Assembly: GCA_025055015.1 (NCBI GenBank)
Contig: JANWYQ010000055.1
Coordinates: 41,371 to 105,370, forward strand
DNA from: Caldilineales bacterium
GTDB taxonomy: Bacteria; Chloroflexota; Anaerolineae; JAAEKA01
Reading direction: 5' to 3'
DNA: 64,000 nt
Below are positions 9,915-53,647 of this stretch, piece by piece. Each line of letters begins with the position of its first letter. Position 1 is the stretch's first letter. The notes under the pieces were generated by a model that had not been told where the DNA came from, did not search any database, and saw only the letters and a list, made by a program, of their open reading frames with translations. The position numbers and the translations under genes were made by a program.

Positions 9915-10777
9915 CGCGCGTGGCCGTCCTCGTTTCCCGCATACGCGTCGAGGAGAAGCTGCTGCTGGCCAGCCTGGAGGCGGCCGGCGCGCAGGTGCAG
10001 GTGGTCAACGACGGGGAGCTGGTCTTCCGCCTGGGTGACGGCGTCACCCGGCTGGAGGCTGACGTGGCGCTGGAGCGCTCGGTGAGCACGGCGCGTGGGC
10101 TCTACGCTCTGCGCCTGCTGGAGGCCGCGGGCATGCCCACGGTCAACACCTACACGGTGGCCTCCACCTGCGCGGACAAGCTGCTGACCACCGCTGCGCT
10201 GACCGAGGCCGGCATACCCCAGCCGCAGGCGCGCGTCGCCTTCACGCCGGAGGCCGCTCTCCAAGCCATCGAGGAGCTGGGCTATCCGGTGGTGCTCAAG
10301 CCGGTGGTGGGCTCGTGGGGCCGGCTGCTCGCCCGGGTCAACGACCGAGACGCGGCCGAGGCGATCCTGGAGCATAAGGAGGTGCTGGGCTCCTACCTGC
10401 ACAGCATCGTCTACGTGCAGGAGTACATCGCCAAGCCGGGCCGCGACGTCCGCGCCTTCGTGGTGGGCGACGAGACTGTGGCGGCCATCTACCGTCGCTC
10501 CGACCACTGGATCACCAACACCGCTCGCGGGGGCCAGGCCGGCAACTGCCCGGTGACGCCGGAGATCAACGACCTGTGCCGCCGCGCCGCGCGTGCGGTG
10601 GGCGCAGGCGAAGCCGGCGCAGTGCTGGCCGTTGACCTGCTGGAGGACCCCGACCGCGGGCTGCTGGTCAACGAGGTTAACCACACCATGGAGTTCCGCA
10701 ACAGCATCGAGCCCACCGGCGTGGACATTCCGGGGCTGGTGGCGAGGTATGTGCTGGCGCGGGCGGGTGGCCGCTGA
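9911..10777 (+). CDS. lysX: LysX, alpha-aminoadipate--LysW ligase (RimK-type ATP-grasp)
   Basis: ATP-grasp fold motifs. Immediately follows lysW with an ATGA overlap. Confidence 0.85.
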
Positions 10778-10892
10778 TCGGTAACCGATGACCGGTGACC
10801 GGTAGCTCGTAAGCCGCAACCCTCTGCGCGAAGAGACGACCGCTCACTGATCACCGATTACCGCTCACTGATCACCGTTCACCGTTCACCGA
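10776..10892. repeat. heptanucleotide tandem repeat array (GGTAACC/GGTGACC units), then reverse-complement array (CTGATCA/CCGTTCA units) giving an imperfect inverted repeat
   Basis: 7-nt periodicity visible in cggtaac cgatgac cggtgac cggtagc ... ccgctca ctgatca ccgatta ccgctca ctgatca ccgttca ccgttca. Located in the lysX-lysY intergenic region. Confidence 0.8.
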
Positions 10893-10899
10893 GACAACC

Positions 10900-11973
10900 A
10901 TGACCGTACGAGCATCCATCGTCGGCGCGTCGGGCTACGGCGGCGGCGAGCTGCTGCGGCTGCTGCTGGCCCACCCCCACGTGGAGGTCGCCCAGGTGAC
11001 CTCGGAGTCCAACGCCGGCAACTACGTGCACAGCGTGCACCCCAACCTGCGGCCCGGCCTGGCCATGCGGCGGTATGCGGGCTACGCCAGCGGCCAGGGG
11101 CTGCGCTTCACCAGCATCGCCGAGCTGCAGCCGTGCGACGTGCTCTTCCTGGCCCTGCCCCACGGCGAGGCGCAGCGTCGCATCGAGCACTTCGCCGGCC
11201 TAGCCGAGCGCATCGTGGACCTGTCGGCCGACTTCCGGCTGCGGGACCCGGCCGCCTACCGCCAGCGCTACGGCGAGCCCCACCTTGCGCCGGCTTGGCT
11301 GGAGCGCTTCGTCTACGGCCTGCCGGAGCTGAACCGGGAGGCCATCCGCCAAACCCGCTACTGCAGCGGCGTGGGCTGCAACGCCACGGCCTCCATCCTG
11401 GCCCTGCTGCCGCTGCAGCGGGCCGGCCTCCTGCGCGCGGACCGGCCCATCGTGGTGGACGTCAAGGCCGGCTCCTCCGAGGGCGGCGCATCGCCCAGCC
11501 TGGCCTCGCACCACCCGGAGCGCAGCGGCGCAGTGCGCTCCTTTGCGCCCACCGGCCACCGCCACGAGGCCGAGGTGATCCAGGCCCTGGGCCGGGAGGA
11601 CATCTACCTCTCGGTGACGTCCATCGAGCTGGTGCGCGGGGTGTTAGCCACGGCCCATTGCTGGGTGGAGCCTGGGCTGACCGACAAGGACCTGTGGCGC
11701 GCCTACCGCGCCGCCTACGGCCAGGAACCCTTCGTGCGCATCGTGCACGAGCGGACCGGCGTCTATCGCCATCCGGAGCCCAAGCTGCTGGCCGGCACCA
11801 ACCTGGCCGACGTCGGCTGGGACCTGGACCCGGCCACCGGCCGGCTGGTGGCCCTGGCCGCGATTGACAACCTGGGCAAGGGCGCAGCCGGCAGCGCCGT
11901 GCAGTGCATGAACCTGATGCTCGGCCTCGACGAGACGGCTGGGCTGGAGTTTGTCGGGTTACATCCGGTGTGA
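10900..11973 (+). CDS. lysY: LysY / ArgC-type N-acyl-gamma-aminoadipyl(glutamyl)-phosphate reductase
   Basis: N-terminal Rossmann motif VGASGYGGGELLRLL. Catalytic Cys region SGVGCNATA. Length 357 aa. Confidence 0.85.
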   Translation: MTVRASIVGASGYGGGELLRLLLAHPHVEVAQVTSESNAGNYVHSVHPNLRPGLAMRRYAGYASGQGLRFTSIAELQPCDVLFLALPHGEAQRRIEHFAGLAERIVDLSADFRLRDPAAYRQRYGEPHLAPAWLERFVYGLPELNREAIRQTRYCSGVGCNATASILALLPLQRAGLLRADRPIVVDVKAGSSEGGASPSLASHHPERSGAVRSFAPTGHRHEAEVIQALGREDIYLSVTSIELVRGVLATAHCWVEPGLTDKDLWRAYRAAYGQEPFVRIVHERTGVYRHPEPKLLAGTNLADVGWDLDPATGRLVALAAIDNLGKGAAGSAVQCMNLMLGLDETAGLEFVGLHPV

Positions 11974-12055
11974 TCAGTAACCGGTGAACGGTAACCGGTA
12001 AGCAGTGACCGGACTGCCAACCACCGTTTGCCGTTTACCGATCACCGTTTATCGG
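11972..12055. repeat. heptanucleotide tandem repeat array (GAACGGT/AACCGGT forward, then CACCGTT/TGCCGTT reverse orientation)
   Basis: tgatcagtaaccggtgaacggtaaccggtaagcagtgacc...ccaccgtttgccgtttaccgatcaccgtttatcgg. Same unit family as 10776-10892 and 52779-52880. Located in the lysY-lysZ spacer. Confidence 0.8.
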
Positions 12056-12067
12056 CATGGAGTAGAC

Positions 12068-17989: not shown

Positions 17990-18234
17990 GGGAGGTGATG
18001 AATTGGTCACGGCGCACTCCGTAGGCACAGAAGTTTGTGCTTTCATTCTAAACACATCGAGGAGAGTGTCAAGAGCCGATAGCTGTAACACACGTAACGC
18101 GTAGTGTGTAATCCAAAGCTTGTGCAAGGTGTCTGCTCACTTCCGCCCAAGAGTTACGTCTTACCTGTGGCGCACGACTCGTTATGCCCCCGACAAGTCC
18201 TGCCACACTGCACTTGTCCCACGAGGAACCTCCC

Positions 18235-19287
18235 ATGCCCACTATCTGTCTCATCCCCGGCGACGGCGTCGGCCAGGAGGTGATCCCGGCCGCAGCGCGA
18301 GTGTTGACGACGGTCGCGCCTGACTTGGCCTTTGTGGAGGCCGAGGCCGGCTGGGCGTGCTTCCTGCGCTGCGGCACGGCCCTGCCCGACGAGACCCTGG
18401 CCGCCGTAGCCGCTGCGGACGCCACCCTCTTCGGCGCCACCCAGTCGCCTAGCACGCCGGTGGAGGGCTACCGCAGCCCCATCCTGGCCCTGCGCCAGCA
18501 CTTCGACCTCTACGCTAACTTGCGGCCTACCTGGACGATGCTGCCCGGCCAACCGGCTCTTGACCTCCTCCTCGTCCGCGAGAACACCGAGTGTCTCTAC
18601 GTCGGCCGCGAGCGCCGGGAGGGCGATGCGGCCATCGCCGAGCGCGTCATCACCCGCCGCGCCAGCCAACGCATTGCCCACGTCGCCTTCCAGCACGCGC
18701 GGCGGCGCGCGCAACAACCCTCCGCCTCATTGGCCACTGACAGTTTACCATTGACCATTGGCCAGTCCGCCGTCACCGTCGTTCACAAAGCTAACGTCCT
18801 CAAGCTCACCGACGGCCTGTTCCGAGAGGCGTGCCTGGAGGTGGCTCAAGCGTACCCCGACGTGCGGGTCAACGAGATGCTGGTGGACGCGGCCGCCATG
18901 TGGCTGGTGAAGAACCCCGGCCGCTTCGACGTGATCGTCACCACCAACCTTTTCGGCGACATCCTCTCCGACCTGGCCGCCGGGCTGGTGGGCGGGCTGG
19001 GCGTGGCGCCCTCGGCCAACGTGGGCGCGGGCCGGGTGGCCGTCTTCGAGCCGGTGCACGGCAGCGCGCCCGATATCGCCGGCCAGGGGATCGCCAACCC
19101 GGTGGGCGCCATCCTCAGCGCAGCGATGCTCCTGGACCACATCGGCCGGCCGGAGGCTGCGCGCCGGGTGCGCAGCGCTGTGGCCGAGACGCTGGCCTGT
19201 GGTACAATAACCCCCGACCTAGGCGGCGCGGCCTCCACCGACGAGGTGACGGCGGCGGTCGTCAGACACGCCAGCGCCCAGCGTTAG
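18235..19287 (+). CDS. homoisocitrate dehydrogenase (isocitrate/isopropylmalate dehydrogenase family)
   Basis: Begins [32 protein letters not shown] signature of beta-decarboxylating dehydrogenases. GAGGAA RBS. Confidence 0.85.
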
Positions 19288-43575: not shown

Positions 43576-47388
<3,813 letters not shown>

Positions 47389-51598: not shown

Positions 51599-51931
51599 TC
51601 AGCCGTGCTCCACCGGACCTTCCGATACCCCGTCGAGGGAGGGCAGCATCCACGTGGAGCGCAGCCGACGCACGAAGCGGTCAATGTCCTCTTCGGTCGC
51701 TAGCTCCGGATCGTCTGCATCGGACCAGGCGCCGCTGGACTTTTCAAGGGCCTTGAGCGGTCGTTCCCGACGAAGCGCGCGCTCGGTTGCTTCCACGATG
51801 AAGCTGTTCCGCTCCCGCGGTGGTACAAGCGACTCCATCATCTCCAGGAGAGGCTCGGGAAACGCTACGTTGATTCTTCGTCGGCTGACCGATGGTGCTG
51901 TCATCGTTGCGCCTTCGTGTTCTTCCGTCAC
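51599..51931 (-). CDS. ribbon-helix-helix antitoxin-like protein, paralog of 17732-17989 (alternative start at 51904)
   Basis: RRINVAFPEPLLEMMESLVPPRERNSFIVEATERALRRE and a C-terminal SGAWSDADDPELA...IDRFVRRLR tail align with the first paralog. Confidence 0.6.
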   Translation of the reverse strand: MTEEHEGATMTAPSVSRRRINVAFPEPLLEMMESLVPPRERNSFIVEATERALRRERPLKALEKSSGAWSDADDPELATEEDIDRFVRRLRSTWMLPSLDGVSEGPVEHG

Positions 51932-53259
51932 CAGCTTCCCATCTTCGTCATTCGCTGCACCTCGATAGCAAACACCACGCGCGGGGCCTGCATCAGCGCC
52001 TCCACCATGGCGTCCACCCGTTCGGCCGGCACGTAGCGCGCCACGATGCGCTGTGTGATAGGCCGCGCCGCCTCCCCCTCGGCCACCACGTGGGCCAGGC
52101 CGCGGCCCGTCACCCCGCGGTAGGGCGGCTGGTCGCGGTCAATCGCAAACCCGACCTTGGGGTGGCCGCGCATGTTGCGTGCCTTGACCCGGTCGGCCGT
52201 GGTGCTCACCAGCAGGCGGCCCTCCTCGAACAGGTACCACACCGGCGTCACCTGGGGATAGCCGTCGCTGCCCAGGGTGCCCAGGCGCATCAGCAGGCCG
52301 GGCTCGTTCAGAAACGCCACCACGGCGTCGTCCAGGGCGATAGGGGGGTGTTCGTCGTGCATGGGAGATGTCTCCAAGGGGGCGTGAGCGGTCCCCGGGA
52401 TGGCGTCGGCCCGCTCGATGGCCAGCCACTGGGCCAGGTCCGCGGGCAGGTCCACGTCCAACCCCAGCCGCGGGGAGCGGACGATGTGGCAAGCCAGGCC
52501 GCGCTCGCGCGCCTGGGCGCAGTGGCGCTGAAAGCTGCCGGGGCCGAACGCATAGCGCAGCGCGCCCGGCGGCCGCACCAACAGCGCGTTGGTGCCCTGC
52601 TCCTGGCCGTCCGGCGCAACAACCACCGCGGCCGGCGCGTAGAGCAGCTGGCTGGCCCGCCACAGCCGCTCCACGTCGGCCAGGGTGAGCAGCGGCAGGT
52701 CGGCCGGCAGGATCAACACCGCGCTGGCTCCGCGCGCCGCAGCAAAGGCCGTGGCCTGCTCCAGCGCGGCGTTGAGGGGGTGATCGGTGGACGGTGAACC
52801 GTGAACGGTGAACGGTGGACGGTGATCAGTAATCGGTGAACGGTGAACGGTGATCGGTGGACGGTGAACGGTAAACGATGAGCCCTGATCGCTCTTCTGC
52901 GGAGCTCGCCTCCCTACCTGCGACCGCCCCGACAACGCTCTCGAGGAACCTCTGTGCCTCTGGGCCTGTGCGTTGAACGTCCGCCCCTCCAGGTGCGAAC
53001 CCGCCTCCGCAGGTACGGGCGACGCCGCCTCGGCCAGGGGCAGCAGACCGTAGGCCGCGGCCAGGTCCAGCGCCGCGGGGTCGGGGCTGACTACGATGCC
53101 GACCGCGCCAAGCCGGCTCTGCGCCTGGCGGACGACCTCCAGGCTGCTCTGTAGCAGGCGCAGGGCCAGCGCCTGGCGCTCCTCGGCCGACAGGACCTCA
53201 GCCAGCCGGCTCTTGGCCTCGGCCAGCCGCTTGACCGGGACGAGGATGTACAGCGTCAC
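51928..53259 (-). CDS. cofC: 2-phospho-L-lactate guanylyltransferase CofC fused to a C-terminal PPOX-class F420-binding split-barrel domain; carries an in-frame heptamer-repeat insertion
   Basis: GTG start overlapping the cupin stop (GTGA). LYILVPVKRLAEAKSRL and LILPADLPLL...GTNALL...FGPGSF...LDVDLPADL are CofC motifs. The heptamer-repeat-encoded HRPPITVHRSPITDHRPPFTVHGSPSTD segment lies between them. C-terminal YPQVTPVWYLFEEGRLLV...PRVVFAIEV is PPOX/F420-dependent-enzyme-like. Possible internal restart at MHDEHPP with a GGAGA RBS. Confidence 0.7.
   Translation of the reverse strand: MTLYILVPVKRLAEAKSRLAEVLSAEERQALALRLLQSSLEVVRQAQSRLGAVGIVVSPDPAALDLAAAYGLLPLAEAASPVPAEAGSHLEGRTFNAQAQRHRGSSRALSGRSQVGRRAPQKSDQGSSFTVHRPPITVHRSPITDHRPPFTVHGSPSTDHPLNAALEQATAFAAARGASAVLILPADLPLLTLADVERLWRASQLLYAPAAVVVAPDGQEQGTNALLVRPPGALRYAFGPGSFQRHCAQARERGLACHIVRSPRLGLDVDLPADLAQWLAIERADAIPGTAHAPLETSPMHDEHPPIALDDAVVAFLNEPGLLMRLGTLGSDGYPQVTPVWYLFEEGRLLVSTTADRVKARNMRGHPKVGFAIDRDQPPYRGVTGRGLAHVVAEGEAARPITQRIVARYVPAERVDAMVEALMQAPRVVFAIEVQRMTKMGSW
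52779..52880. repeat. about 14 tandem heptanucleotide units (GGTGAAC/GGTGGAC/GGTGATC) inside the cofC coding frame
   Basis: ggtggac ggtgaac cgtgaac ggtgaac ggtggac ggtgatc agtaatc ggtgaac ggtgaac ggtgatc ggtggac ggtgaac ggtaaac. Shares TGATCAGTAA.CGGTGAACGGT with the locus at 11972. Confidence 0.85.
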
Positions 53260-53647
53260 GCCGGCTCCCACCGGCCCGGCACGAAGTAGGCCTCGTCCTC
53301 GCCGGGCCACGGGGGCATAGTGATAGCCACGGCCGTCAGCGGCTCCGGCCCGAAGGAGCGAAACTGAAAATGCGTGCCCAGCGGGATGGTGATGCACACG
53401 CCGGCTGACACCGGCGTGATCTCCTCGCGCTCGCCCTGCCGCCGCCACATCTCCCCCCGGCCGCCCAGGAAGAACCAGATCTCCTCCACCGTGCGATGGG
53501 CCACGGCGCGGGAGGTGCGGCCCGGCGCCAGCGCGAAGTGGGCCATGCTGCCGCCGGGCAGGGCTAGCAGCACCCGCACGTCGGAGCCGTCGGGGGCTAC
53601 TACGTCAGGGGCAGCCGGCAGGTGTTTAGTAGCAAAGGGAACGGACA
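53256..53647 (-). CDS. cupin-domain protein
   Basis: Two-motif cupin pattern (G.H...E and G...P.G..H.F.N). 130 aa. Sits between cofD and cofC. Confidence 0.65.

Follow-up and report, generated by a model that had tools for sequence, protein, structure and literature searches.

A heptanucleotide repeat array in a surface loop of a CofC-PPOX fusion protein from a Caldilineales bacterium: a probable case of a tolerated passenger repeat

The gene for the F420-biosynthesis enzyme CofC in a Caldilineales bacterium (phylum Chloroflexota), which is fused to a region encoding a PPOX-class F420-dependent oxidoreductase domain, contains an in-frame tandem array of 14 full heptanucleotide units. The gene lies on the minus strand of a 64,000-nucleotide (nt) stretch of DNA (contig JANWYQ010000055.1 of the assembly GCA_025055015.1, positions 41,371 to 105,370), hereafter referred to as the window. 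The interpretation that we consider probable is that a genome-wide heptanucleotide family has expanded as a tolerated passenger in a permissive surface loop of CofC, with selection keeping the reading frame. This interpretation is based on the anatomy of the array, on the finding that orthologous genes have arrays of this family at the equivalent loop, on the conservation of catalytic motifs and predicted fold, and on further arrays of the family in the window.

Results

Heptanucleotide array within the cofC coding sequence

The array was identified by Tandem Repeats Finder at positions 52779-52881 of the window, with a period of 7, 14.7 copies, 79% matches and a score of 122. Its consensus is GGTGAAC on the plus strand and CGTTCAC on the minus strand, which is the gene strand, and the copies are imperfect. 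Self-identity of the array is 0.78-0.84 at lags of 7, 14, 21 and 28 nt (0.79 at lag 7) and 0.13-0.28 at lags that are not multiples of 7; none of 5000 shuffled sequences matched the lag-7 value, so the heptamer tandem repeat is beyond chance. The sequence of full units along the gene strand is CGTTTAC, CGTTCAC, CGTCCAC, CGATCAC, CGTTCAC, CGTTCAC and CGATTAC (units 1-7), followed by TGATCAC, CGTCCAC, CGTTCAC, CGTTCAC, GGTTCAC, CGTCCAC and CGATCAC (units 8-14). The longest run of identical neighbouring units is two, and the variant units TTACTGA and TCACTGA occur within the array. The two strands differ in their coding capacity: all frames of the plus strand contain TGA, and the gene strand has a single stop, which leaves two of its three frames open.

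The original prediction, which was made from the letters of the sequence, had described such an array inside cofC, and both Tandem Repeats Finder and the translation of the open reading frame (ORF) bear it out. The predicted peptide HRPPITVHRSPITDHRPPFTVHGSPSTD is found exactly within the ORF at 51928-53448 on the minus strand, flanked by VPVKRLAEAKSRL and LILPADLPLL; the array thus lies between the N-terminal motif and LILPADLPLL, as had been proposed, and the ORF stays open across it.

Structure of the array-bearing gene

The following features of the gene were distinguished:

51928..53259, minus strand: cofC-PPOX fusion gene with a GTG start and 443 codons followed by a stop; the product is identical to P0001 (NCBI, metagenome-assembled genome (MAG) of a Caldilineales bacterium)
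53023..53259, minus strand: N-terminal part of CofC, residues 1-79, with the VPVK..AKSRL motif; GC content at the first, second and third codon positions 0.84/0.46/0.94, of coding type
52882..53022, minus strand: non-repeat part of the insert (SPVPAEAGSHLEG...QKSDQG); the composition looks non-coding
52779..52881, minus strand: heptamer array of the family NNT[T/C]AC[G/C], 14 full units plus partial units, translated as (S)SFTVHRPPITVHRSPITDHRPPFTVHGSPSTDH
52402..52776, minus strand: C-terminal part of CofC, residues 162-286 (LNAAL, LILPADLPLL, GTNAL, DVDLPADL), confidently folded in the structure model
51931..52347, minus strand: fused PPOX-class F420-dependent oxidoreductase domain (TIGR03618; PF01243)

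The array-bearing gene encodes CofC fused to a PPOX domain. In profile searches the protein scored 157.2 bits against TIGR03552 (CofC; cutoff 105) and 87.4 against PF01983 (cutoff 22), and each of these matches falls in two stretches with the insert between them. Because the NCBI record holds an identical protein of 443 amino acids (aa), the start was assigned to the GTG at 53259-53257. This codon overlaps the TGA of an upstream cupin-like ORF as GTGA, and cofD is located directly upstream of the cupin-like ORF. The fusion of CofC with PPOX is common to about 70 homologues from Caldilineales and Anaerolineae MAGs, most of them 364-386 aa in length, and at least three additional fused orthologues were found in a metagenome scan; no description of such a fusion turned up in the literature searched.

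Extent and composition of the extra segment

The extra segment comprises codons 80-161 (246 nt, 82 aa) and consists of 141 nt of unique sequence (52882-53022) and the 103-nt array. In a sequence search of the PDB, solved CofC/FbiD structures matched residues 3-77 and 160-280 of the window protein and skipped residues 78-159. The original prediction had equated the inserted segment with the array alone (102 nt); the in-frame array stands, and the extent had to be revised, since about 82 aa (246 nt) lack a counterpart in the CofC structures.

For the composition figures the unique part was taken as codons 80-128, with its boundary to the array set at codon 128. The GC content at third codon positions is 0.91-0.94 in the flanking CofC parts, 0.76 in the unique part and 0.52 in the array, and an index similar to the codon adaptation index gives 0.64-0.66, 0.29 and 0.26, respectively. 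Neither part of the insert carries the coding signature of its flanks. The 5' edge of the unique part is an imperfect 24-nt tandem duplication of the adjoining native sequence (AEAASPVP followed by AEAGSHLE). Comparison of the 141-nt unique part with the window, with 80 related loci and with the lys-operon spacers described below gave chance-level matches only (BLAST with a word size of 9; Smith-Waterman).

Two origins of this segment were considered and rejected. The unique part is not a decayed array, since its lag-7 identity is 0.27 and it has no period-7 signal. A mobile insertion was rejected as well: the insert is bounded by neither terminal inverted repeats nor a target-site duplication (an internal 11-nt pair and the 24-nt local duplication were all that was found), so that the ideas of a miniature inverted-repeat transposable element, an intron or an intein were dropped. 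An Rfam search of the insert gave no match, with a chance small nucleolar RNA match only in the E-value scan; RNA folding of the insert was not significant (z = +0.84), and there is no inverted partner array. Furthermore, no additional Pfam domain was found in the protein, and no second copy of the unique part was found in the window or in the 80 loci. A search for other proteins with the repeat-encoded peptide gave no candidates.

Heptamer arrays at the same loop of orthologous proteins

The length of the loop was measured between the conserved residues E77 and L162 of P0001 in 72 fused homologues. In unfused CofC proteins the loop has 4-5 aa. The main classes in the fused clade have 14 aa (15 proteins), 19 aa (20 proteins) and 26 aa (7 proteins); other lengths in the range of 16-31 aa are represented by a few members each, and loops of 43, 45 and 64 aa occur as single cases. 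With 84 aa, the loop of the window protein is the longest of all, the next longest being that of 64 aa. Proteins of the 14-aa class have no repeats in the loop.

Heptamer units were observed at this loop in a series of relatives. Four orthologues (L003, L005, L006 and L008) carry four GGTTACG/AGTTACG units after TCC. The closest relative (L161), which is 74% identical outside the loop, has CGTTCAC CGATCAC CGATCAC, units identical to those of the window. Seven units are present in L165 (GGTTACG, AGTTACG, AGTTACG, GATCACG, CATCACG, GTTCACG and TTTCAAG) and four in L166. The DNA sequences of these last two genes are 95.2% identical and their proteins 96% identical outside the loop, and the loops differ by exactly 21 nt, i.e. 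three units. All these units belong to one family, NNT[T/C]AC[G/C], the units of the window being one base away from those of the relatives, and they are present at the orthologous loop in 4, 6, 7 or 14 copies. More distant fused orthologues have other heptamers at the same loop, namely GCGGGTG in L163 and CCAAATC/GCACATC/CCCATCC in L164. Proteins with 87-96% identity over the rest of their length differ in the sequence of the units, in their number and in the peptide encoded, and each of the 19 fused-clade orthologue DNAs examined is in frame.

The presence of the same heptamer family, with 4-7 units, at the same site in relatives argues for the expansion of an old resident array rather than for a new insertion. 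By this comparison, the array appears to be an old resident of a hypervariable CofC loop, and the window holds its largest known expansion. The proposal that the array is an insertion relative to orthologues is therefore only half retained: the extra length is real (84 aa versus mostly 14-26 aa), and the new insertion is not, as relatives carry 4-7 units there. No repeat-free segment of the same length, which would have indicated a divergent native linker, was seen in relatives; most fused orthologues have a loop of 14-26 aa.

Conservation of the CofC fold and catalytic motifs

An alignment of 77 homologues has 28 invariant columns, all of them retained in P0001; among these are P185-A-D-L-P189, G222-T-N-A225, and D268 and D270, the DxD of DVDLPADL. 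In an AlphaFold2 model built on the alignment of the 77 homologues, the predicted local distance difference test (pLDDT) score exceeds 90 at residues 1-76 and 160-286 and in most of the PPOX domain. The score falls to 36-55 at residues 77-159, which have no secondary structure and are located between a strand (73-76) and a helix (160-175). Foldseek comparison of the model with 7p97 and 6bwg/6bwh gave target-normalised template modelling (TM) scores of 0.82-0.92; the alignments have about 280 columns for targets of 195-207 residues, which indicates that the insert is skipped. The structure modelling suggested in the original prediction as a check of the insert position thus places the insert in a predicted disordered loop that connects a beta-strand to the helix beginning with LNAAL.

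The original prediction had left a choice between a tolerated insert and an inactive cofC copy, and had called both unusual. Intact catalytic residues, the fold model and operon coupling, together with loops of 43-64 aa in other lineages, point to the insert being tolerated, and with the loop present the enzyme is most probably active. The case is less unusual than first stated, since heptamer repeats in surface loops encoded within ORFs have a precedent (PMC4679880). Within the protein, the repeat itself presumably serves no function.

The heptamer family elsewhere in the window

Recurrence of the repeat family was assessed on the 64 kb of the genome contained in the window, where three further loci with heptamer arrays are relevant:

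10775..10892, plus strand: spacer between lysX and argC with the NNT[T/C]AC[G/C] family, comprising an antisense-type array, a 34-nt spacer and 8 sense-type units
11971..12056, plus strand: spacer between argC and the next gene, with inverted arrays of the NNT[T/C]AC[G/C] family and a strong hairpin
18728..18764, plus strand: weak heptamer array (ACCATTG/ACAGTTT; Tandem Repeats Finder) inside the homoisocitrate dehydrogenase (HICDH) gene at 18184-19287 on the plus strand

In these 64 kb two of the array loci, including that in cofC, are thus inside genes and two are intergenic. Arrays of the form NYACYGN were found four times in the window versus 0.33 expected (10837-10892, 11974-12008, 12035-12055 and the cofC array). 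In each of the two spacers within the operon formed by lysX, argC and the next gene, the antisense-type array spans the upstream TGA, and the sense-type array, set off from it by a short spacer, ends near the next start region: in the lysX-argC spacer, the antisense-type array (10775-10803) includes the TGA stop of lysX, and the 8 sense-type units (TCACCGN/TCACTGA) end 7 nt before the ATG of argC. The sense-type arrays of these spacers consist of TCACCGN with the variants TCACTGA and TTACCGC. The paired arrays are mutually complementary and form hairpins (z = -2.5 for 10775-10892 and -5.9 for 11971-12056), which may be operon-internal regulatory or processing elements. The array in the HICDH gene (ACAGTTT ACCATTG ACCATTG) provides a second loop insert, lying precisely where the protein has a 17-aa insertion when compared with the Thermus HICDH structures 3asj and 1x0l; on a reading of the sequence only, its units would be members of the family found in cofC.

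Discussion

Proposed history of the cofC array

The probable scenario can be outlined as follows. A heptanucleotide family NNT[T/C]AC[G/C] (sense form TCACCGN) would be dispersed in the Caldilineales genome, and a short array of it would have been resident in the CofC surface loop before the fused CofC-PPOX subclade diversified. The array may grow and shrink by replication slippage, the usual account of length change in simple sequence repeats (summarised in PMC4679880), or by unequal recombination. As 7 is not a multiple of 3, only frame-restoring changes would survive, typically of three units (21 nt, 7 aa), and within genes only the stop-free strand orientation at structurally permissive sites would persist. 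In the lineage of the window the array would have grown to 14 units, and the 141 nt of unique, non-coding-like sequence would have joined it at the 5' edge, in part through a local duplication. The 82-aa product is predicted to be a disordered loop rich in Ser, Pro, Arg and His that leaves the CofC fold and catalytic motifs intact, and the expansion would then be neutral for the protein.

Several points weigh against this scenario. No source sequence was traced for the 141-nt unique part, and the non-coding-like composition of the insert also fits a very recent, possibly harmful event. The closest relative is only 74% identical, so that the timing and steps of the expansion cannot be dated from it. 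A tblastn search found no second cofC within the 64-kb window, which is all that this search covered, and the segment is known from a single MAG assembly.

Alternative explanations

The insertion could have inactivated this cofC copy, leaving a young pseudogene or a crippled enzyme, with F420 synthesis maintained by another gene or lost. The insert is the largest at this site (84 aa versus at most 64 aa elsewhere), its composition suggests a recent arrival, and the conserved xE[AP][AST] that precedes LNAAL in orthologues is replaced by array sequence. We nevertheless regard inactivation as unlikely: the frame of 443 codons is open with no frameshift or stop, every invariant residue is kept between flanks of strongly coding signature, the fold is retained in the predicted model, in other lineages this loop reaches 43-64 aa in genes that are otherwise conserved, the gene is translationally coupled in the cofD operon through the GTGA overlap, and no other cofC is present in the window. 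An artefact of MAG assembly, caused by repeat-induced misjoining, is hardly credible. Tandem and dispersed repeats can indeed cause misassembly in a metagenome-assembled source, and the exact P0001 protein is not on record in the contig index; however, the insert has exactly 246 nt and is in frame, both flanks are colinear with the same gene, the 103-nt array is shorter than typical reads, and independent assemblies of relatives carry arrays at the same site.

Functional roles of the array were weighed in the same way. The array could serve as a binding site for an RNA or DNA factor in the cofC mRNA, or its His/Pro-rich peptide could be a functional linker, given that in the lys operon the same family forms hairpins and directly adjoins stop and start codons, that the array persists at the CofC loop across many species, and that a part in regulation has been proposed for the heptamer repeats of other phyla (PMC4679880; bioRxiv 10.1101/2022.06.06.494920). 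However, the cofC insert has neither an inverted partner array nor significant RNA structure, no Rfam match was obtained for it and no start codon lies downstream of the array; unit sequence, copy number and peptide vary freely between close relatives, as expected where there is no constraint, and the 14-aa class of orthologues has no repeats at all. We consider such a function quite unlikely. We hold it still more doubtful that the TCACCGN arrays constitute an active system of functional cis-elements in filamentous Chloroflexota, a GC-rich counterpart of the TAACTGA repeats discussed below, acting through a dedicated factor or operon-internal hairpins, in which the cofC array would influence how the mRNA of the F420 operon is translated or what its fate is, or would serve as a slippage switch. 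A contingency locus, at which slippage by numbers of units that are not multiples of three switches CofC-PPOX, and hence F420 synthesis, off and on, appears very improbable. A non-triplet tandem repeat in an ORF is the classical layout for phase variation, unit number differs between close relatives, and a shift by one unit would throw the C-terminal half out of frame. Against this, the units are degenerate (79% matches), and their longest identical run, of two, falls well short of typical phase-variable tracts; none of the 19 fused-clade orthologue DNAs examined is out of frame, close relatives differ by exactly three units, and the gene encodes a housekeeping cofactor enzyme of a free-living Chloroflexota organism, not a surface or restriction protein.

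Relation to known heptanucleotide repeats and CofC proteins

The cyanobacterial STRR heptanucleotide repeats of Mazel et al. (1990) reportedly form genome-spread tandem arrays with variable copy number. A close parallel is provided by the TAACTGA direct repeats that MacGregor (2015, PMC4679880) described from Beggiatoaceae, cyanobacteria and some Bacteroidetes; like the family in the window, these are dispersed tandem 7-nt units. The TAACTGA repeats are mostly intergenic, abutting stop codons and located just upstream of start codons (PMC4679880). The orientation rule is also shared with the cofC array: one strand has stops in three frames, and the other is open and compatible with an ORF (PMC4679880). 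In an RpoC-like ORF, three reverse-oriented TAACTGA units (a direct repeat plus a single unit set apart by a related 7-mer) code for a short peptide that belongs to a variable surface loop (PMC4679880). In contrast to the TAACTGA repeats, the unit in the window is GC-rich (TCACCGN or GTTCACC) and belongs to the phylum Chloroflexota, 14 units together with 141 nt of unique sequence are located in the middle of a metabolic enzyme, the intergenic copies are inverted pairs that form hairpins, and the cofC array was followed through orthologues as an apparently long-lived, length-variable locus.

Heptamers are over-represented among the simple sequence repeats of bacteria (PMC4692102). The GGGAATC/GGGGAYT heptamers of Xanthomonas and Nostoc likewise form genome-spread tandem arrays of variable copy number, with an excess outside genes and a deficit on the coding strand of ORFs (PMC4692102); they can form G-quadruplexes and prefer four copies, whereas the unit in the window has no G-tracts and is in-gene and translated. 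With phase-variable loci, such as the heptanucleotide repeats at the hmw genes of Haemophilus influenzae (PMC8262952), the cofC array shares a gene-associated, non-triplet unit, whose copy number changes by slippage at those loci. Contingency tracts are long perfect runs in host-interaction genes with on and off states, whereas the cofC array is degenerate, has always been seen in frame and lies in a gene for cofactor biosynthesis. Both halves of the window protein match the CofC/FbiD guanylyltransferases (PDB 2i5e, 6bwg/6bwh and 7p97) in sequence and predicted fold; about 82 residues of the window protein correspond to about 10 in the solved proteins, which have no fused PPOX domain.

The novelty of the case is limited to the phylum, a GC-rich unit, the size that the insert reaches in a conserved metabolic enzyme, and a series of orthologues with a three-unit step between near-identical genes. 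A literature search found no paper combining "heptanucleotide repeat" and "Chloroflexi". The cofC locus would provide a natural example of a repeat with a non-triplet unit that is long-lived in a gene for an essential-type enzyme, its persistence requiring a disordered loop, a stop-free orientation and length changes by three units at a time. With it, the range of dispersed heptanucleotide repeats, known earlier mainly from cyanobacteria, Beggiatoaceae and xanthomonads, is extended to the Chloroflexota. For annotation, an insert of this kind should not be read as evidence for a pseudogene, and for protein engineering it marks a CofC loop that appears highly permissive; the knowledge of F420 biosynthesis itself is unchanged by the finding.

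Neighbouring genes and other period-7 arrays

Just downstream of cofC-PPOX, an ORF of 110 aa is located at 51599-51931 on the minus strand; it has no NCBIfam match, and judging by its sequence alone it is presumably of the ribbon-helix-helix (antitoxin) type. At one of the related loci (L163, positions 389-929), a PemK-toxin gene and a small partner ORF are found just upstream of cofC-PPOX. In another Caldilineales genome (L004, about 1040-1140 and 1640-2640; DTUCFX11, JAJTXO010000682.1), the region upstream of the intact cofC-PPOX gene contains a truncated duplicate of the 5' end of cofC (VTLHIGVPVKRLTESKSRLAPVLPADGRK*) and, after it, a small ORF of unrelated sequence; this arrangement suggests an insertion that duplicated the start of the gene.

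The strongest array with periods of 7, 14 and 21 in the window is located at 45217-45367 (151 nt) in the ORF at 43576-47388 and consists of CCCGCTC/CCCCCTC units. It lies directly upstream of the start of a UvrD-helicase domain (aa 603, about nt 45382), corresponds either to a Pro-rich N-terminal extension or to a 5' leader, and is flanked by purine-rich repeat arrays at 44878-44981 and 46685-46755. Heptamer arrays were also observed in loci from other Anaerolineae MAGs (L038, 498-585 and 4045-4084; L046, 4050-4092; L003, 3364-3407; L014, 2572-2607), with the unit types CTTCATC (about 11 copies), CCACCGT (four copies), GTTCATC and CAGTGAT. Their occurrence in several such loci suggests that period-7 arrays are widespread in the class.

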